52,568 bases of DNA from Coleofasciculus chthonoplastes F2-STO-03 (GCA_040222015.1 JAVJWO010000217.1:1-52568), one strand, 5' to 3'. Shown: positions 26,680-52,568, counted from the stretch's first letter. Program-made: numbers and translations. Notes: generated by a model from the sequence alone, not told the origin.

Positions 26680-28126
26680 GTGAACTACTCAGGCTTACTT
26701 CGTTGAAGCCTGAGCTTCTGGTTTCGCTGGGGATTGCGTCAGCTTAGTACAGACGCGCCATGGCGCGTCTCTACGCCCAAGCTTCGGTCTCACATCCCCT
26801 CCACCAGCAACAGTCCCAGTCCCTGAGACCGATAAATTTTGTTGAGCCTGTCGAAGCATTCTGACACCTTCCGCTCTAATATTTGCTGAGGCATTACCAT
26901 CTCTATCATGATGAGTGCTACAGTTAGGACAAGTCCAATTCCTAACCTCTAGCGGCATCTCGTCTACCTGATAATGACAGTTTGAGCAGAGTTTTGAACT
27001 AGGAAACCATCGGTCAATCTCTACCAGTACCTTACCCTCTTTTTCGAGCTTGTATGACAAGAAATTGACAAACATTCCCCAGCCTACATCAGAAATTGCT
27101 TTGGCTAGTTTATGGTTCCGAACCATGCCTTTAGTATTTAGACTTTCGACTACGATAACTTGGTTTTCGTCAACAAGCTTTCTCGATAGCTTATGTAAGT
27201 AGTCTTGACGGACATTACTAACTCGTTCGTGAACCCTAGCCACCAGTTTCCTGGCTTGATCTCTTGACTTGCTTCCCTTCTCCTTTCTAGCTAATTTTCG
27301 TTGCTTTCTCGCTAAGTTACGCTCATGCTTGGCTAAATGTTTGGGGTGATCAAACTTAGAGGTTTTCACCCCATCGTTAACAATGGCAAAATCCTTTAAT
27401 CCCAAGTCAATCCCGGCAATTTTACCTTCACTTCGACTTGCGAGAGTGCTGACAGGAGGATTATCCCCTTCTACCTCGGTTAATACAGATGCAAAATACT
27501 TACCCGATGGCGTCATGCTAACCGTTACTGTCTTGATAGTTCCTTCAATTGGTCGGTGTATTTTAGCTTTGACTACGCCAACACGACCGGGAAACTTGAG
27601 GCAACCATCAACAACTTTAACCGATTGAGGATACTGAATGGATTGCTTATTCTTTTTGGCTTTAAACCTTGGGTATCTAGCTCTACATTCAAAGAAGTTT
27701 TTATAGGCAGTTACCAGATTAAGCGTCGTCGATTGTAGCACCTGAGAATAGCACTCAGATAACCATTGCGTTTCCTCCTGTTTTTTGAGCTTAGGTAAAA
27801 AGGCATTCAATGCAGAACGAGTCAAGCCTTTGCCCGTTGCCTGATAGGTTTCAATGCACAAATTAAGTGCATAATTCCACCACCAACGAGCGCAGCCAAA
27901 GTGTTGAGCTAATATCTCTTGCTGTTCAGTTGTTGGATATAGCCTAACTTTGATGGCTTGATGTCGCATCGCTTTCACCTCCTCTTACCACTATATATCA
28001 TTTAAGTTAAGCAAGTCCTGAAGATGGGAAATTTCGTTCCTCAAATTTAACCCTGAGCGGAGTCGAAGGGTTCCCGCTGTCCATCCTCACCCTACTTCGC
28101 CCTTGGGTGAGGACTTCCGCGACGCC
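26680..28126 (-). mobile_element. IS200/IS605 family element with tnpB only (IS1341-type)
   Basis: Left-end hairpin tcctcaccc...gggtgagga after TTTAA(C) on the minus strand; right-end hairpin ctcaggctt...aagcctgag ending TTCAC at 26680; no tnpA inside. Confidence 0.8.
26695..27978 (-). CDS. tnpB: RNA-guided endonuclease TnpB
   Basis: N-terminal KVRLYPT HTH; RuvC-I GIDLG, RuvC-II VVESL, Zn finger CSNC/CPNC, RuvC-III DRDGNA all present. Confidence 0.95.
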   Translation of the reverse strand: MKAMRHQAIKVRLYPTTEQQEILAQHFGCARWWWNYALNLCIETYQATGKGLTRSALNAFLPKLKKQEETQWLSECYSQVLQSTTLNLVTAYKNFFECRARYPRFKAKKNKQSIQYPQSVKVVDGCLKFPGRVGVVKAKIHRPIEGTIKTVTVSMTPSGKYFASVLTEVEGDNPPVSTLASRSEGKIAGIDLGLKDFAIVNDGVKTSKFDHPKHLAKHERNLARKQRKLARKEKGSKSRDQARKLVARVHERVSNVRQDYLHKLSRKLVDENQVIVVESLNTKGMVRNHKLAKAISDVGWGMFVNFLSYKLEKEGKVLVEIDRWFPSSKLCSNCHYQVDEMPLEVRNWTCPNCSTHHDRDGNASANIRAEGVRMLRQAQQNLSVSGTGTVAGGGDVRPKLGRRDAPWRVCTKLTQSPAKPEAQASTK

Positions 28127-42979: not shown

Positions 42980-43209
42980 GCATTAATGTCACGGGCAAAA
43001 TCGAACACAAGGATATTGGCATGGGGGCTTGGGCTTTAGTTGCCGATTCTGGAGAAACCTATGAACTTCAGGATGCCCCCGATGAGTTACAGCAATCTAA
43101 CCTGAACGTGAAGGTGCAAGGAGAGGTGCGAGAGGATGTGATGACTATGGCTATGATTGGTCCAGTCCTACAAGTGCAGTCCTTTGAGGTGATATCGCAA
43201 TCGCCATAG
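42976..43209 (+). CDS. Small hypothetical protein (OB-fold-like), translationally coupled to the peptidase
   Basis: ATGA overlap with the upstream stop; G.WAL....GETYEL...V.G.VREDVMT.AMIGP pattern. Confidence 0.75.
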   Translation: MSINVTGKIEHKDIGMGAWALVADSGETYELQDAPDELQQSNLNVKVQGEVREDVMTMAMIGPVLQVQSFEVISQSP

Positions 43210-43402
43210 CGGTTAGGACGAATCTTATGGTAGAGACGTTCCGCCGGAACGTCTCTACTTGTATATCAACCTTTACGTGGATCTAAAAACTGAGTTTATT
43301 TTGATTTTTTGTAACAAAATATTAATATTTTGTTTGGTCTAGTTTCCTGTCTCTGTATAATGCTTTTGGTGAATATAAACAGTTAAATAGGATACAGAAT
43401 TT

Positions 43403-44152
43403 ATGGTGACGAGTTTGCCAAAAGATTTAGTGGATTGTTCAGAAACTTCAATTTCAAAGTCGCAGCAAGTTCTCCAGCAAAATAGCTTTATCTATGTAGA
43501 AACAGAAAACCCCAGTTTTAACTGGATAGAATGGGCTAAATTGGTCACAGGTGAGACGTTAAAACCGCAATACGGGCAAGAGATATTCTACGTCAAATGG
43601 GAATCTAAATTTGTGAACTTGTCCGACGCCCGAGGTCAACGGGTTTTGCTGCCTCACACCGAAGCCAGCGATTATCAAAACCCACCGAAATATCTAGCAC
43701 TTTGGTGCAAAAAGCAGGCAAATTGTGGGGGAGGGAAAACAAATTTAGCTTATGTAGAAGGGTTTGTCAAGACGCTTACCGAAGCAGAAAAGAAAAAACT
43801 CATGGAGACACGGCACTATTTTGGTGCCACTGGAGGTGTCCACACCCACCGCACCGAAGGCGCCATTCATCCCATCTTATCATTTTCGGGGAACAAGCCT
43901 ATTTTACGGTTGTCTTGCAACTATATTAAATACGGTGACTACAGCCCCGATCCAGAGAACCTAAAGCCCTTTACTCCCGATCCATTTTTGGCAGAAATTA
44001 CCGACCGATTTATCGACTATTACGAGCAAAATCACCTAGCAATTCGGATGGCACAATACTCCTGTTTGCTTTGGGATAATCAATGTATGGCACATGCCAG
44101 AACTACCTATAGTGATCCAACCAGAGAACTAGAACGTATTTTCTTGGGCTAA
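43403..44152 (+). CDS. TauD/TfdA (clavaminate synthase-like) Fe(II)/2-oxoglutarate dioxygenase
   Basis: LPHTEAS (HxE), PP.YLALWC...A.CGGG.T, HPIL, LLWDN..MAHAR...R.L.R motifs. Confidence 0.85.
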   Translation: MVTSLPKDLVDCSETSISKSQQVLQQNSFIYVETENPSFNWIEWAKLVTGETLKPQYGQEIFYVKWESKFVNLSDARGQRVLLPHTEASDYQNPPKYLALWCKKQANCGGGKTNLAYVEGFVKTLTEAEKKKLMETRHYFGATGGVHTHRTEGAIHPILSFSGNKPILRLSCNYIKYGDYSPDPENLKPFTPDPFLAEITDRFIDYYEQNHLAIRMAQYSCLLWDNQCMAHARTTYSDPTRELERIFLG

Positions 44153-44284
44153 TCCCCCACTGATTTTTTAGGAGGGAGAATTCCTTGTATTTTTGGGTAA
44201 TCACTTCATGGGTAAATATCAGACAACTATAGCCAACGCTTAAGAAGGCTGGCAAAACGGATAAAAAAAATTGAGAATAATCGG

Positions 44285-45544
44285 ATGAGAGTATTCAATG
44301 AATTGGAATCCAATGTACGAAGTTATAGCCGTTTATTTCCCACGGTGTTTAAAACAGCACAAGGCGCTATTTTAGAAGATAAACAAGGGTTTAAGTACAT
44401 TGACTTCCTCTGTGGAGTGGGTACACTGAATTATGGACATAATAACCCCCAACTCAAAGAACGACTGATCCGTTATCTGCAGTCTGATGGTATAATCCAT
44501 GGTCTGGATTTAGCCACGGTGGCGAAAGAGGAATTCCTCGAAACCTTTGCTGCCGTTATTCTCGAACCTAGGCAATTAAATTATAAAGTTCAGTTTCCTG
44601 GACCAACAGGAACCAATGCGGTAGAGGCGGCGCTGAAACTGGCTCGTAATATAACGGGGCGCTCAACAGTGATTGCCTTTTCCAATGGCTATCATGGCGT
44701 AACCCTGGGTTCCTTAGCCACAACCGCCAATGCTTCCCAGCGGGGTGCTTCCGGCATTCCCACCACAGGCGTAACCTTTATGCCTTATGATGAGTATTTG
44801 GGTCGAGATATTGATACAACAGAGTACCTCGATAAAGCCCTGTCTGACAAAGGTAGTGGCGTAGCCCTTCCCGCTGCCGTGATTGTGGAAACCATTCAGG
44901 GCGCTGGTGGGGTGAATGTGGCAAGATTTGAGTGGTTGCGATCGCTCGAAAAGGTCTGTCGTCAGCATGATGTTTTATTAATTGTAGACGATATCCAAGT
45001 GGGGTGTGGACGAACGGGTTCCTTTTTCAGCTTTGAAGACATTGGTATTTCCCCTGATATTGTCACCCTCTCTAAATCCTTGAGTGGTTTCGGTTTGCCG
45101 TTTTCCTTGGTACTGATTAAACCTGAATTCGATCAATGGAAACCCGGACAACATAGTGGCACATTTAGAGGACCCAACCTCGCCTTTGTCACCGCTAAAG
45201 CCGCTTTGGATATCTATTGGCAAGATGACAGTTTGTCAGCCTCGGTTAAACAAAAAGGTATCTTCATGGAATCCCGATTGCAGGAGATCGCCAAGATGAC
45301 AAAGAAAGCCGAGTTTTCGGTTAGAGGTAGGGGTATGATTCAGGGGTTAGACAGCAAAGATGGAAACCTCGCTAAAAAAATTATCCAGACAGCCTTTGCC
45401 CAGGGGCTAATCATGGAAACCGCTGGCGCACAAGGGGAGGTGATTCGCTGTCTGCCACCTTTAACTGTTTCGGAAGAGGTATTAGAGAAGGGACTAAATC
45501 TCCTGGAAAATGTCGTCAACGAAGTTGTCCAAAACGCCATCTAA
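44285..45544 (+). CDS. ectB: Diaminobutyrate--2-oxoglutarate aminotransferase (EctB-like), copy 1
   Basis: ESNVRSYSRLFPTVF, LNYGHN, YKVQFPGPTGTNAVEAALKLAR, DDIQVGCGRTG.FFSFE, SKS (PLP Lys), W.PG.HSGTFRG. Confidence 0.85.
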   Translation: MRVFNELESNVRSYSRLFPTVFKTAQGAILEDKQGFKYIDFLCGVGTLNYGHNNPQLKERLIRYLQSDGIIHGLDLATVAKEEFLETFAAVILEPRQLNYKVQFPGPTGTNAVEAALKLARNITGRSTVIAFSNGYHGVTLGSLATTANASQRGASGIPTTGVTFMPYDEYLGRDIDTTEYLDKALSDKGSGVALPAAVIVETIQGAGGVNVARFEWLRSLEKVCRQHDVLLIVDDIQVGCGRTGSFFSFEDIGISPDIVTLSKSLSGFGLPFSLVLIKPEFDQWKPGQHSGTFRGPNLAFVTAKAALDIYWQDDSLSASVKQKGIFMESRLQEIAKMTKKAEFSVRGRGMIQGLDSKDGNLAKKIIQTAFAQGLIMETAGAQGEVIRCLPPLTVSEEVLEKGLNLLENVVNEVVQNAI

Positions 45545-45621
45545 GTGGAGATCGTCATTGGTCATTTGTCATTTGTCATTTGTCTCCCACACCCTGTAGC
45601 CATTAGTCAATATTAAAATAA

Positions 45622-46587
45622 ATGCCGATGAGTGCTGTTATTGACAATTCTCCAGAAGTCCTAACTCGGATAGAACAAATTGAAACCATTTGTGGACGGG
45701 ATATCGGACATGGTATCGAACCCCTCGTGCAGGCTGCTCAAGGGAGGCTGCTGGGTGCCGCTCGCTCCATCGCTGAACATCCATCCCCCCATGTCGCAAT
45801 TATCACAGGATTTTTTATTCCCCATGGCACTCCTCCGGCTGCGGAAAATGATGGTCCCATCGGTTGCGCTCACCTAGCGGCGGGACTTCAAAGAGTTGGA
45901 GTACCGGTGCGTCTGGTTACCGATCCTTTATGTCTCAATGCTGTCCAAACGGCGGCGAGGGCAGCGGGAATACCGGCTAACCTGCCTTATGATTTTGTTC
46001 CTGTGGATGCGGCTAGCGCTGAAGATCCCTCAGTTTCTTCTATTGTCAAGTTATGGCGAAGTAGCGAACCACCGGTTTCCCATGTTATCTCCATTGAAAG
46101 AGCCGGTCCAAGTTCTGATGGTACGGTTCGCAATGTAAATGGGGATGATATTACCGCTCATACCGCTCCGTTGCATCTGTTATTTACCCTCAATGACATT
46201 ATCTCCATCGGCATTGGTGATTTGGGCAATGAACTCGGTATGGCAACCCTTTCTCACGAGCTAATTGCTAAAACGATTAAGCATGGAGAACGAATTGCCT
46301 GTGATATTCCTTGCGATTACCCAATCATGTGCGGAGTATCAAACTGGGGAGCCATTGGGTTACTCATTGCCCTGGCTTTGCTGCGTTATGACTGGAAATC
46401 TAAGTTAACTGAGGGACTCACATTAGACATCGATAAACATATTTTGACGACTCTTGTCAATGAGGAAGCCGCCATAGATGGCGATACGGGATTGCCAGGT
46501 TTTACCATAGAGACTTTTCCTTGGGAATTTCATGGCAACGTGTTGACAGAACTTTTAGCCGCCGCCGGTTTGAGCGAGTCAGCTTGA
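45622..46587 (+). CDS. D-glutamate cyclase-like protein (DUF4392)
   Basis: TGF, ENDGPIG, SIERAG, GIGDLGNELGM, VSNWG and DG motifs. Confidence 0.8.
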   Translation: MPMSAVIDNSPEVLTRIEQIETICGRDIGHGIEPLVQAAQGRLLGAARSIAEHPSPHVAIITGFFIPHGTPPAAENDGPIGCAHLAAGLQRVGVPVRLVTDPLCLNAVQTAARAAGIPANLPYDFVPVDAASAEDPSVSSIVKLWRSSEPPVSHVISIERAGPSSDGTVRNVNGDDITAHTAPLHLLFTLNDIISIGIGDLGNELGMATLSHELIAKTIKHGERIACDIPCDYPIMCGVSNWGAIGLLIALALLRYDWKSKLTEGLTLDIDKHILTTLVNEEAAIDGDTGLPGFTIETFPWEFHGNVLTELLAAAGLSESA

Positions 46588-47832
46588 GAGCGCCGCCGCG
46601 ATACTTTTATCTAAAATATCTAACCCCTGGTTCAACGTGTCAAAATCAATCGTTAGGGTAGACTGAAGATTAATCACTTCTTTGTCCACACCCATGGGTT
46701 CAAAGATTAAACCCCGTTGGAACGCTTCATGACTAACTTTTTTCGCTAATCCAGGTAGCTTGCAGGCGATTCCTTGAATCAAACCCAGTCCTCGATGTGC
46801 GCCGCCGAGTTCGGGATAATCAGCAATCATCTCTTGGAGTCGCTGCTTCATGACTTCACCTTTTTCGACGATTTCCTGGGAAAAAGCATCGGTTTTCCAG
46901 TATTCTTCCAAAGCCGCCGTCGCAGTAACAAAGGCGAGATTATTACCTCGGAACGTGCCGCTATGTTCTCCAGGTTTCCAGCCGTCTAAATCCGGTCGAA
47001 TCAACACCACAGCCATCGGATTTCCATAAGCACTTAAGGATTTAGCCAGACAAACCAGATCAGGTTTTAACCCGGCTCGCTCAAAGCTAAAGAACGGACC
47101 GGTTCGACCACACCCAACTTTGATATCATCAACAATGAGCAAAATTCCTTGCCCTTGAGTAATCTGGGTAAGACGCTTGAGCCAAGGCACACTCGCAACA
47201 TTAATTCCGCCTTCAGATTGAACAGTTTCTAGGATAACGGCGGCGGGTTTTTCCTGATTTTGGCTCAAGTCATCGATCAGTTTTTCCAACTGATTAAGAC
47301 TATCGTCTTTGCTGCCAGATTGCTCCTCGAAGGGAACCGTTAAAACATTACCAAGGGGAATCCCGGCGGCTTTTTGATAGACTGGATTCGGGGTTACTGC
47401 TAGAGCGCCTAAGGTATGACCGTGGTATCCTTTCGTGAAACAGATAACGGTTTTTCGACCTGTCACTTTACGGGCAAGCTTCAACGCGGCTTCGGCTGAA
47501 TTGGTTCCCGTAGGACCGGTAAACATAACCTTATAGTTGAGTCCTCGCGGTATTAAGATTATCTCCTCGAAACATTCGAGAAACCTCCCCTTTGCAGCGG
47601 TGAACATATCAAGGCTATGAGTTATGGCATCTGACTCAATGTATTCTAGGAGGGGCTTTTTGAGTTTGGGATTATTATGTCCATAGTTGAGAGCACCAGC
47701 ACCTGCCAAGAAGTCTATGTAGGTGCGCCCGTTCTCATCGATTAAATGATCTCCCACTGCCTTGGTAAAGACGGTGGGAAATAATCGACAGTAGCTGCGG
47801 ACTTCCGACTCAATTCTTGTAAAAATGCTCAT
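46579..47832 (-). CDS. ectB: EctB-like class III aminotransferase, copy 2 (divergent active-site motifs)
   Basis: ESEVRSYCRLFPTVF, GAGALNYGHN, GPTGTNSAEAALKLARK, DDIKVGCGRTG, AKS, WKPGEHSGTFRGNNLAFV. Confidence 0.8.
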   Translation of the reverse strand: MSIFTRIESEVRSYCRLFPTVFTKAVGDHLIDENGRTYIDFLAGAGALNYGHNNPKLKKPLLEYIESDAITHSLDMFTAAKGRFLECFEEIILIPRGLNYKVMFTGPTGTNSAEAALKLARKVTGRKTVICFTKGYHGHTLGALAVTPNPVYQKAAGIPLGNVLTVPFEEQSGSKDDSLNQLEKLIDDLSQNQEKPAAVILETVQSEGGINVASVPWLKRLTQITQGQGILLIVDDIKVGCGRTGPFFSFERAGLKPDLVCLAKSLSAYGNPMAVVLIRPDLDGWKPGEHSGTFRGNNLAFVTATAALEEYWKTDAFSQEIVEKGEVMKQRLQEMIADYPELGGAHRGLGLIQGIACKLPGLAKKVSHEAFQRGLIFEPMGVDKEVINLQSTLTIDFDTLNQGLDILDKSIAAALSS

Positions 47833-47993
47833 GTTCTTAACCTTTTGCTAGTATCTTCAAACCATGGAATAGCGATCGCATTGGATTCACTTAAGTTTAT
47901 AAAATGTAATGTCTACTTAACGAGTCCCAGAATCCAGAATACATTGTATGCTTTTTAGGGTAAATAGCCTAAATTAAATCAGCATAGGAAACC

Positions 47994-48806
47994 ATGACAC
48001 CAAGTCGATTTACAGAATCTGACACCGAGGCGTTGTTTGATGATCAGGAACGAGACAAACGTTTCCGTAACTTCTGGAACCCAGAAGGGAGTCTCCACTG
48101 GGGCTATTTCAACAACTTAGCCGAGGCTCAGGCTGAGGACTTTGTACCCGCCTGCAAGCGCTGGGATGAATATATGTTGGAACAAAGCGGTATTACTGCC
48201 GAGTCTCGGGTGCTAGAAGTTGCTTGTGGAAATGGCAACGCAGCTATCTGGCTGGCTCAACAGACAGGATGTGAGGTCGTCGGTATCGATCTCAGTGGCA
48301 ATTATATCGACAATGCTCGACGCAAGGCTAGTAATTTTCCGTCTCTGCGCCTGAACTTCCAAAAGAAATCAGCCACTAATCTGCCTTTTCCAGATGGTTT
48401 CTTTACCCATGCCTGGAGTCAAGGCGCTCTGTACCACATCCCTGAACTAAAGAAGGCTCTGGCGGAGGCTTACCGTGTTCTCAAAGAAGGAGGTATTTTC
48501 TTGTTTGATGATTTGGTCACGCCAGTCAAGGAAGTCAGCGCGGCTACCCGCAAATACGTTTATGATCGACTGCTGTTTGAGCCGACATTTAGCCGCGAAT
48601 CCTATGCCGAAAACCTCACTGAGCTAGGATTTAACGTGTTGCAGGTCAAGGATTTAAGTGAACATTTGGAAAAGAGCTACAAATTGGTGTCCGAGCTGGC
48701 TCAGGAGCAATATCCAGATTTGAGCGCTGCTTTTCAGAAAACCCAAGAGGCAATCGCCGCAGGTGAATTAGGCTGGTGCTTCTACCTCTGTGAAAAGCCA
48801 GGTTAG
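47994..48806 (+). CDS. Class I SAM-dependent methyltransferase (sarcosine/dimethylglycine or sterol/tocopherol MT-like)
   Basis: LHWGYF, VLEVACGNG, VVGIDLS, LPFPDGFF...WSQGALYH, RVLK.GG motifs; AGGA RBS. Confidence 0.85.
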   Translation: MTPSRFTESDTEALFDDQERDKRFRNFWNPEGSLHWGYFNNLAEAQAEDFVPACKRWDEYMLEQSGITAESRVLEVACGNGNAAIWLAQQTGCEVVGIDLSGNYIDNARRKASNFPSLRLNFQKKSATNLPFPDGFFTHAWSQGALYHIPELKKALAEAYRVLKEGGIFLFDDLVTPVKEVSAATRKYVYDRLLFEPTFSRESYAENLTELGFNVLQVKDLSEHLEKSYKLVSELAQEQYPDLSAAFQKTQEAIAAGELGWCFYLCEKPG

Positions 48807-48986
48807 CCAGCCGCAAGAAAATCAAGACATCTAAGACTTTCTTTAACTCTTATGAATTATGAATTAGAAACGTTACTTTTTAATCCATAATTCATGTTTT
48901 TTTTCGACAACTCAAGAAGGTAACAGGCAACAAGGATATCGAGTTGACTATGCTCAAAGATAATGCCAATCAAAATTGAGCGATCG

Positions 48987-50746: not shown

Positions 50747-50821
50747 GAGTTGGGGGAGATATTGATAAAAAAATGATCTAAACTGCTTGGGATATCTTAA
50801 TTGGTCTTCCAGTTCCTGTCG

Positions 50822-51721
50822 ATGGTACAAGAAAACGATCACGATTTAATCCGGGAAGCCGAAGCAACCCGTGTGCAGATACTCAGTGAAGCCTTACCTT
50901 ACATCCAGCAGTTTGCTGGGAGGACGGTTGTGGTTAAGTATGGGGGGGCGGCGATGAAGGATAGCAACCTCAAAGATAAAGTAATTCGGGATGTTGTCTT
51001 CTTATCCTGTGTCGGCGTTCGTCCCGTTGTGGTTCACGGCGGTGGTCCAGAAATTAATAGCTGGTTGGATAAGCTGGGGATTGAACCGCAGTTTAAGGAT
51101 GGGTTGCGGGTAACGGATGCACCCACGATGGATGTTGTGGAAATGGTTCTCGTGGGTCGAGTGAATAAAGAGTTAGTCTCTCTGATTAACCAGGCTGGCG
51201 GGTTAGCTGTGGGACTTTGCGGTAAAGACGGGAATTTAATCAAAGCCCGTCCAGAAGGGCGCAAGGGGATTGGCTTTGTTGGAGAAGTCAGCAGTGTGGA
51301 TATTAAACTGGTGGACTCCTTGGTCAAAAGTGGCTACATTCCAGTTGTGTCAAGTGTTTCAGCGGATGAATCAGGTCAAGCCTATAATATCAACGCTGAT
51401 ACCGTTGCTGGCGAAATTGCTGCCGCTTTGGGAGCCGAAAAGTTAATTCTGCTCACTGATACTCCTGGGATTTTGGAGGATTACCAAGACCTCTCCACTC
51501 TAATGGCTAAGCTGGATATCCAACAAGCACGAGGTTTAATTGCATCGGGTGTTGTGGCTGGCGGTATGATACCTAAGGTCAACTGTTGTGTGCGATCGCT
51601 AGCTCAGGGGGTACGGGCGGCTCATATTATTGATGGTCGAATTCCCCACGCTTTACTTTTAGAAATTTTTACCAAGAAAGGAATTGGTTCTATGATTGTG
51701 GCATCTGAATTTACGACTTAG
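50822..51721 (+). CDS. argB: Acetylglutamate kinase
   Basis: [37 protein letters not shown] motifs. Confidence 0.96.
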
Positions 51722-51793: not shown

Positions 51794-52568
51794 CCGTTAT
51801 GAAAGACCTACTCAAAGTTGGTCAACCTTAGTCAGACTTAACTTTGATGCTTACTTCCTGCTTCGCTCTGACGGTGACGGCACTCAACCAGTCCACAGGC
51901 TATCACCACCTAACTGGCGGAACCATTCCAAATTAATGGAGGCATTAAAATCTCTGTCGATTTCCAGTCCGCAGTTATCGCACCGGAAAACTCGCTCTGA
52001 TAAAGGCATCTCCTCTTGGACGGTATGGCATCTTGAGCAGGTTTTAGTTGAGGGATACCATCGGTCTACTACAACCAAGCTTGATCCGTACAACTGGCAC
52101 TTATACTCTAACTGGCGTTTGAACTCGTGAAAGCCCATATCCTGAATAGCTTTCGCCAATTTGTGATTAGCCATCATGCCCGACACATTAAGATTCTCTA
52201 TTCCTATTCGGCTGTGGTTTTGGGCTAAATAGGACGTGAGTTTGTGCAATGTATCTTTGCGAATGTTGGCTATTTTTCGATGGAGTCTAGCTATCTTAAT
52301 TTGGGCTTTCTTCCAATTAACTGAACCAATTTGTTTATGACGATTTATCCATTGCAGTCGTGAGAGTTTTTTCTCGTACTTTCGGTAAGCTTTCGCCCCC
52401 TCCACTACAATCCCGGTAGACAACACGGCTAACGCTTTTATGCCCAGATCGACACCCACTACAGGGTGGGGTTTGGGGCGGTTGACTGGTTCATATTCCA
52501 GCTTAAAGCTGATAAACCATCGGTCAGCCGTCCTGGATATGGTCACAGATTTGGGCTGAAAACAAACG
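51794..52568 (-). mobile_element. Right part of a tnpB-carrying IS, probably IS607 family
   Basis: 3' region GCCTGTGGACT...AAGCAGGAAGTAA... ending ...AACGG, without the hairpin+TCAA/TTCAC end seen on the other elements. Confidence 0.55.
51884..52568 (-). CDS. tnpB: RNA-guided endonuclease TnpB (5' end outside the window)
   Basis: GVDLGIK, IENLNV, STKTCSRC...CDNC, DRDFNASIN; frame stays open to the window edge. Confidence 0.92.
   Translation of the reverse strand, partial: VCFQPKSVTISRTADRWFISFKLEYEPVNRPKPHPVVGVDLGIKALAVLSTGIVVEGAKAYRKYEKKLSRLQWINRHKQIGSVNWKKAQIKIARLHRKIANIRKDTLHKLTSYLAQNHSRIGIENLNVSGMMANHKLAKAIQDMGFHEFKRQLEYKCQLYGSSLVVVDRWYPSTKTCSRCHTVQEEMPLSERVFRCDNCGLEIDRDFNASINLEWFRQLGGDSLWTG

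Follow-up and report, generated by a model that had tools for sequence, protein, structure and literature searches.

A mobile, co-inherited five-gene cassette with two altered EctB-like enzymes in Coleofasciculus chthonoplastes: a candidate pathway to a modified diamino acid

What do five tightly packed enzyme genes of the cyanobacterium Coleofasciculus chthonoplastes F2-STO-03 make, when two of them resemble ectB but none of the five is ectA or ectC? The genes occupy positions 43,403 to 48,806 of JAVJWO010000217.1 (assembly GCA_040222015.1), whose whole length of 52,568 nucleotides is called the window here, and encode a dioxygenase, two EctB-like enzymes, a DUF4392 protein and a methyltransferase. 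They form a mobile, co-inherited, dedicated five-gene unit, and we put the probability that this cassette represents a dedicated, undescribed pathway at about 0.85. By analogy with known enzymes, the chances are roughly even that its product would be a hydroxylated C4 diamino acid of the 2,4-diaminobutyrate (DAB) type, N-methylated in the manner of a betaine, or its five-membered lactam, made independently of a nonribosomal peptide synthetase (NRPS). The features of the locus are as follows.

43403..44152, + strand: Fe(II)/2-oxoglutarate dioxygenase, clavaminate-synthase-like, 249 amino acids (PF02668, TauD)
44285..45544, + strand: EctB1, EctB-derived pyridoxal phosphate (PLP) enzyme with A207 and R388, K264/Y14/R295 retained (TIGR02407)
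45622..46587, + strand: lone DUF4392/PF14336 di-metal enzyme, as TON_0340 and the D-glutamate cyclase C-terminal domain (Pfam, TON_0340 alignment)
46579..47832, - strand: EctB2, Aminotran_3 PLP enzyme with K238 and N388 (TIGR02407, alignment)
47833..47993, no strand: spacer of 161 bp separating the divergently oriented ectB2 and methyltransferase genes (bounds of the open reading frames)
47994..48806, + strand: class I S-adenosylmethionine-dependent methyltransferase, 270 amino acids (Pfam/NCBIfam)
43194..48967, no strand: extent of the island (flank comparison within the genus)

All five open reading frames (ORFs) were verified with the coordinates, orientations, 9-bp convergent overlap and 161-bp divergent spacer that an earlier note on this DNA had given; between the remaining neighbours lie 132 and 77 bp. 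The families assigned by Pfam and NCBIfam are TauD, Aminotran_3 (twice), PF14336 and class I methyltransferase, and the guanine plus cytosine (GC) content of the genes (0.44–0.49) is in line with that of the genome (0.454). The same note had described the window as free of ectC, NRPS, siderophore synthetase and aspartokinase genes. Pfam searches for the first three were negative in 29 further ORFs of at least 111 amino acids and in four flanking ORFs, and the one AA_kinase match (50801-51721) reads as an acetylglutamate kinase from its sequence. A housekeeping aspartate kinase is encoded on another contig of the genome.

That the genes belong together is indicated first by their distribution. 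When 401 genomes of the order were searched for EctB2 (E ≤ 1e-150), the dioxygenase (E ≤ 1e-60) and DUF4392, the first two were found in the identical 14 genomes. DUF4392 occurs in those 14 and three more, in two of which it comes after a PF07286 gene, while distant dioxygenase homologs are found in seven other genomes in unrelated contexts. This co-occurrence is far beyond chance, and the recurrence in other genomes that the earlier note had called for was thus found. All five genes are present in 12 of the 16 loci found with the dioxygenase, titled Coleofasciculus (2), Hormoscilla (2), Moorena (3), Okeania (2), Symploca, Pleurocapsa and a Gammaproteobacteria metagenome-assembled genome (MAG); of the other four, two are cut off by a contig edge, a third holds four genes with a gap in the assembly, and L033 holds nothing but the dioxygenase. 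Closely related carriers do not count as independent cases, but the flanks differ from one genus to the next. The closest ones, with 94% dioxygenase identity, are titled Coleofasciculus, and in at least three loci (L031, L034 and L035) the gene order is changed while the content is kept.

Within the genus, three of nine genomes carry the block, and in the other six the flanks are joined directly as an empty site. The distance between the flank matches is 147 bp in genomes G004 and G007 versus 5,774 bp in the window, corresponding to a clean insertion of about 5.6 kb. The cassette is under purifying selection, the ratio of nonsynonymous to synonymous substitution rates against the window being 0.05–0.25 in 54 of 55 gene pairs (undefined in one). 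In the gammaproteobacterial MAG (L030), the cassette genes have a GC content of 0.43–0.50 compared with 0.60–0.61 for host genes. Inside the cassette lies a DDE transposase for which the same genome gives 10 matches. This combination of a low-GC island and a resident-genome transposase makes, on the strength of one assembly, a genuine transfer more likely than an error of binning.

Two further observations concern the make-up of individual cassettes. Among congeners the cassette is mosaic (window 45201-46387 compared with L021 and L020), the DNA identity between window and L021 being 75–86% over the end of ectB1 and DUF4392 and 99–100% over the methyltransferase gene. In genome G705 (L214:1-3158), the dioxygenase gene has neighbours just upstream that none of the other loci shows, encoding a sodium:solute symporter and a reductase of NRPS-like type; a 470-residue open frame at this dioxygenase was rejected as a fusion, as it is a run of N.

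Do the two ectB-like genes mark an ectoine locus? EctC (three queries) and EctA (two) from ectABC loci gave no tblastn match at E ≤ 0.01 in the window's own genome (G000, 99.99% complete), whereas in the positive control the EctC queries matched 57 and the EctA queries 54 of the fetched loci. Family searches for ectA and ectC in G000 were also empty, although the ectC control likewise gave no signal. Since the host lacks ectA and ectC, the cassette is, as judged from sequence, not one for ectoine synthesis, and genes elsewhere that could account for the EctB copies, as the earlier note had considered, were not found. In a phototroph survey, ectoine synthesis is reported as absent from all cyanobacteria tested (PMC7824335). 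That the genes are leftover or dispersed ectoine genes is hardly credible: both proteins do score above the TIGR02407 ectB equivalog cut-off of 552 bits (644 and 596), and the sister of EctB1 does stand before ectC, but the absence of both partner genes from a nearly complete genome with a positive control, together with fixed active-site changes under purifying selection, speaks against decay. This sister, 69% identical to EctB1, is encoded by an ectB-ectC pair on a 2.7-kb metagenome contig (L062:368-2083), whose source may be a cyanobacterium with ectoine genes.

The active sites of the two enzymes were compared in an alignment of 17 EctB1, 65 EctB2, 46 ectC-linked EctB and 65 other near homologs, the latter two serving as background (n = 111). 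E207, Q238 and K388 are invariant in 111/111 background proteins. EctB1 orthologs carry A207 and R388 (17/17) and retain Q238, while EctB2 proteins carry K238 and N388 (65/65), with E207 in 64 and Asp in one (P0224), and H139 in 64/65. K264, Y14 and R295 of EctB are retained in both copies throughout the alignment. Neither copy has the canonical EctB active site. The designation as two EctB-like aminotransferases therefore stands as far as the equivalog cut-off goes, but the E207/Q238/K388 triad is altered in both, and because the canonical site is lost in each, DAB formation by EctB as such, on which the earlier note had built, cannot be assumed for both copies. Compared with ectoine EctB from ectABC(D) loci (6RL5, 9S1Q), the copies share the fold (TM-score 0.96, measured for EctB2 against 6RL5), 52–60% identity, the PLP lysine K264, Y14 and R295; they differ in standing without ectA and ectC, in the changed triad and in joining two unrelated EctB lineages.

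In a quick tree, EctB1 lies beside an ectC-linked EctB (Shimodaira-Hasegawa-like approximate likelihood ratio test, SH-aLRT, 99–100) and EctB2 forms a separate clade (SH-aLRT 100). As the copies fall in separate clades, the sequences indicate that two EctB lineages were recruited separately; a recent duplication of ectB within the cluster was rejected by the same tree. Both nevertheless share L17, Y136 and S/T291 (mostly S291), states that are rare in the background (L17 in at most 8/110, Y136 in 9/111). Such rare states in copies from separate clades suggest that the two enzymes work on one substrate scaffold or assemble together, or that gene conversion took place.

What might the altered residues do? 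In ungapped HMMER ranges, positions 207 and 238 correspond to E211 and residue 242 of GabT and to residues 210 and 241 of α-amino-ε-caprolactam racemase (ACLR); the match to 5m49_A (query 8-79, chain 200-271) is ungapped, so that K238 equals residue 241 of the racemase. E211 of GabT is the switch that masks a carboxylate-binding basic residue during ω-transamination, and D210/K241 is the signature of ACLR, for which PDB titles name D210A and K241A mutants. We take A207 of EctB1 to be position 185 of the 3DM numbering. Ala or Gly at position 185 is reported to mark amine:pyruvate transaminases (PMC9418295).

Because K238 maps to K241 of ACLR, EctB2 may be a racemase, an assignment that we make tentatively and at rather less than even odds. 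A transaminase whose lysine has moved from 388 to 238 is at least as likely, given Glu207 in 64/65 proteins and a lysine at 238 that some Glu-dependent aminoglycoside transaminases also have. EctB2 resembles ACLR in having a lysine where the racemase has K241 and an acidic residue where it has D210, and P0224, with Asp and Lys at both ACLR positions, is the deepest EctB2 branch in the quick tree (SH-aLRT 92). In contrast, EctB2 is only 24–26% identical to ACLR (52% to EctB) and is nested among EctBs in a tree that holds no ACLR row. If it is a racemase, its activity arose independently of ACLR, which is reported to act on α-amino lactams and amides (PMC11391342, PMC7431475).

The protein encoded between the two ectB genes had been called glutamate-cyclase-like. 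This holds for its C-terminal-type PF14336 domain with a di-metal site: the acidic ligands E75, D77, E159, D200 and E204 align with TON_0340, and a sixth, D286, is probable by motif only. It does not hold for the whole architecture, as the PF07286 partner domain has no match in G000 (control positive in 2/14) and the one lone homolog that has been characterised, TON_0340, is reported as a Mn-dependent phosphatase needing the same acidic residues, its physiological substrate being left open (PMC5132392). The cassette protein thus shares the PF14336 domain and metal ligands with DGLUCY (PF07286 + PF14336) and TON_0340, but stands without PF07286, has the motifs E[N/T]DG, GD[L/A]GNE and DGD[T/S] beside the ligands, and is located in a biosynthetic-looking island. 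Two motif types, ENDG/GDLG and ETDG/GDAG, cut across genera. Six homologs were found on plasmids; in both of the two that were examined, a lone DUF4392 gene directly precedes one annotated as alanine racemase, for which the best NCBIfam model is 3-hydroxy-D-aspartate aldolase, below its cut-off. On account of these aldolase-like neighbours on two plasmids, lone DUF4392 copies seem tied to D-amino-acid metabolism, which would be compatible with a stereo-inverting partner.

The TON_0340 activity raises the alternative that DUF4392 serves the pathway as a phosphatase, the substrate of EctB2 being a phosphorylated intermediate whose phosphate is bound by Lys238 and His139. The requirement for the same acidic residues and the near-fixation of both EctB2 residues would fit, but the cassette has no kinase and the TON_0340 substrate is left open, so we regard this as quite improbable. 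A glutamate skeleton, which we consider doubtful, would draw on the other known activity: a two-domain mammalian protein converts D-Glu to 5-oxo-D-proline, the responsible domain not being assigned in the available text (PMC5339696). Here the dioxygenase would oxidise Glu, EctB1 aminate, EctB2 racemise, DUF4392 close the D-pyroglutamate ring and the methyltransferase yield a pyroglutamate-type betaine. EctB1 has no Glu at the GabT E211 position and has Arg388 where PuuE has Arg, and an unshielded Arg388 with Arg295 would make a two-carboxylate site; in addition, the cassette DUF4392 is 54–57% identical to copies paired with PF07286. Against this scheme, PF07286 is absent from G000 and both PLP enzymes descend from DAB transaminases. 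Dysibetaine, a sponge compound, has such a pyroglutamate-type betaine structure, but the literature search gave no paper tying it to a gene cluster.

The dioxygenase belongs to a family of TauD proteins of about 240 amino acids (167 representatives at E ≤ 0.001). Its predicted Fe ligands are H85-E87-H231, an HxE...H triad, accompanied by R241 and R245; H85, H231 and R241 are invariant in an 86-sequence alignment. The AlphaFold model has a pLDDT (predicted local distance difference test) of 95.6, and its nearest folds are AsnO, clavaminate synthase (CAS), KDO1, OrfP and VioC, at 13–18% identity. These closest folds support a model in which the enzyme oxidises a free amino acid and, by analogy with them, would hydroxylate C3 of a free L-amino acid. 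No plasmid match was found for the dioxygenase, and a single-sequence PDB search was empty.

The methyltransferase belongs to a family expanded in marine filamentous cyanobacteria and scores below every curated cut-off, with 80 bits against 550 for SDMT (NF041675), a joint top NCBIfam match in 39/39 family members. Paralogs with 55–65% identity stand beside PanD in L013, L014 and L201-L204, in four of these (L013, L014, L202, L203) also beside BBOX-like genes, and paralogs further adjoin TauD genes. BBOX-type enzymes act on trimethylammonium substrates, which makes N-methylation of an ω-amine the likeliest predicted function of the family, and the cassette enzyme is probably an amine N-methyltransferase. 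Of the N-methylating methyltransferase proposed before, the class I assignment stands, whereas N-methylation rests on gene context and the solved structural neighbours include both O- and N-methyltransferases. A search of plasmids gave no match, and ESM Atlas matches bore generic names only.

A sulfonium pathway of the dimethylsulfoniopropionate (DMSP) or 4-dimethylsulfonio-2-hydroxybutyrate (DMSHB) type with a DsyG-like S-methyltransferase could also be considered, as DsyGD is reported from related filamentous cyanobacteria (PMC11306096) and paralogs adjoin DsyD-like PF04115 genes. It appears very improbable, since the homologs from the two DsyGD-bearing MAG taxa carry accessions different from those of the DsyGD proteins, no methyltransferase-PF04115 fusion was seen among 15 longer homologs (a weak search), and the cassette holds no reductase or decarboxylase. 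The enzyme is related to DsyGD/SDMT-type methyltransferases at the superfamily level, and its paralogs are paired with PanD as in the P. umbilicalis DsyG-like fusion (PMC11306096); unlike them, it seems to form a separate family, far under the SDMT cut-off and outside the DsyG accessions checked.

The paralogs themselves mark other clusters. One recurs in L013:2140-10215, L014:8089-12873, L202:8902-14758 and L203:7787-13016, with a double methyltransferase (465 amino acids), PanD, a ureidoglycolate-lyase-like (DsyD-like) protein and one or two BBOX-like dioxygenases; β-alanine betaine and a hydroxylated derivative seem to be its products. L204 encodes a 674-residue PanD-methyltransferase fusion recalling that of P. 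umbilicalis (PMC11306096), and L201:6610-10705 combines TauD, PanD, a class I aminotransferase and two methyltransferases of this family. Three loci lie in the window's own genome. L017:5953-8547 (contig C134) has a shortened double methyltransferase of 375 amino acids, an aminotransferase and a methyltransferase. L149:9904-17257 (C208), with two BBOX-like proteins, a GntG/threonine-aldolase-like protein (below cut-off), a methyltransferase and a DAP-aminotransferase-like protein, may follow a carnitine-like logic. L150:4967-8136 (C198), where sbnA and sbnB, each scoring above its cut-off, adjoin genes for an NRPS and a dioxygenase resembling EctD, would be a source of 2,3-diaminopropionate, a proposed precursor of β-N-methylamino-L-alanine (BMAA), in a genome rich in amine methyltransferases.

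Upstream of the methyltransferase gene, an ATTRTATRCT(T)TTTAG-like element at 47943-47958 is conserved by eye in 9/9 aligned spacers and is likely the -10 region of this gene. A scan for sigma-70 promoters and terminators stayed at chance level (9 sigma-70 sites versus 9.2 expected). In a check for expression, 12 of 16 listed sequencing runs matched part of the stretch; four were examined, all as contigs, and in three of these the depth is flat over genes, spacer and flanks, so that a DNA origin is possible. A short (GTCATTT)-type repeat at 45545-45584, between ectB1 and DUF4392 and outside the cassette proper, has many copies in the own and related genomes and is missing at the same place in one related strain. 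Two ordinary IS605-family TnpB genes lie at 26695-27978 and 51884-52568.

How could the five enzymes act together? In the pathway that we favour, a primary aspartate-family metabolite would be the starting material. One EctB, most simply EctB1 because its sister is an ectoine EctB, would take aspartate semialdehyde supplied by housekeeping metabolism and transaminate it to L-2,4-diaminobutyrate, using not the usual switch-gated glutamate but Ala/pyruvate or an unswitched dicarboxylate as amino donor. The CAS-like dioxygenase would hydroxylate C3 of the free amino acid; EctB2 would act on the same scaffold by Cα inversion, as racemase or epimerase, or by a second transamination; DUF4392, like D-glutamate cyclase, would use a D-configured substrate and close or open its lactam; and the methyltransferase would methylate the free amine, perhaps three times. 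The product might serve as an osmolyte or as a bioactive compound. The modified diamino acid pathway suggested earlier is thereby kept in its outline, a dedicated co-inherited cluster without ectA and ectC for which a diamino acid is still the best guess, but not in its premise of canonical EctBs. A more specific version, in which EctB2 is a racemase or epimerase evolved independently on an ectoine-transaminase scaffold and DUF4392 a lactam synthase, so that a D-configured hydroxylated N-methylated amino-lactam or a D-amino-acid betaine would result, is a speculative and rather unlikely refinement.

Several points weigh against the pathway as drawn. The activity reported for TON_0340 is that of a phosphatase rather than a cyclase (PMC5132392), position 207 of EctB2 is Glu in 64/65 rather than the racemase Asp, and the substrates of the dioxygenase and the methyltransferase are extrapolated from relatives of 13–18% and about 25–30% identity, respectively. 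In the PDB, the methyltransferase matches RebM-type O-methyltransferases and MitM best, and it scores far below the SDMT cut-off. The cassette is damaged or reduced in places, with a stop in ectB2 of L026 (Moorena) and the dioxygenase alone in L033; the DUF4392 of L021 has two ligand-motif changes; and no conserved transporter was found among the cassette loci. Two findings speak against one linear route: in two metagenome loci (L053 and L054, the latter with 8 kb of sequence on each side) ectB2 stands with the methyltransferase gene but without the other three, and in six loci (L028, L031, L033, L034, L055, L145) an FAH-family gene adjoins the cassette. These loci would suit two modules, with ectB2 and the methyltransferase making an N4-methylated DAB betaine and dioxygenase, EctB1 and DUF4392, with the FAH-family gene where present, remodelling or recycling it; the EctB1 changes would suit α-transamination. 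We consider such a division unlikely, as the genes are always together in whole genomes (14/14; also G705), the remaining genes may lie elsewhere in the source records of L053-L055, and G000 has no FAH ortholog (best match 35%).

The favoured pathway resembles guanitoxin (gnt) and similar stand-alone cyanobacterial clusters, which likewise modify a free amino acid without an NRPS, by means of an Fe/2-oxoglutarate hydroxylase, PLP enzymes and an N-methyltransferase; it differs in having no kinase, aldolase, O-methyltransferase pair or transporter. No Gnt model is among the best 25 NCBIfam families listed for three of the five proteins. Full-text literature searches, whose coverage largely excludes subscription journals, returned no description of this gene set; cyanobacterial DAB synthesis was surveyed across genomes in 2021, and these ectB genes may have been noted there. 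The cassette would seem to be a stand-alone amino-acid-modifying cluster of a known sort, with two enzymes of apparently new function.

Both PLP genes carry the database name 'diaminobutyrate--2-oxoglutarate transaminase' (seen for EctB2), which hides two altered enzymes and could mislead surveys of ectoine and DAB in cyanobacteria. Moorena, Okeania, Symploca, Hormoscilla and Coleofasciculus have been heavily mined for NRPS and polyketide synthase (PKS) products, and in our judgement a cluster of 5.4 kb whose product is small and polar is of a kind that this mining easily overlooks. At its size the cassette can be expressed whole, which makes the diamino-acid products, the role of lone DUF4392 and the transaminase-to-racemase changes directly testable. 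If the racemase and lactam reading is true, a lone DUF4392, whose domain also occurs in human DGLUCY, would gain its first natural substrate, and common marine mat- and bloom-forming cyanobacteria would make a so far unrecognised metabolite that may be neuroactive or osmoprotective and is of enough value for a gammaproteobacterium to have taken it over.

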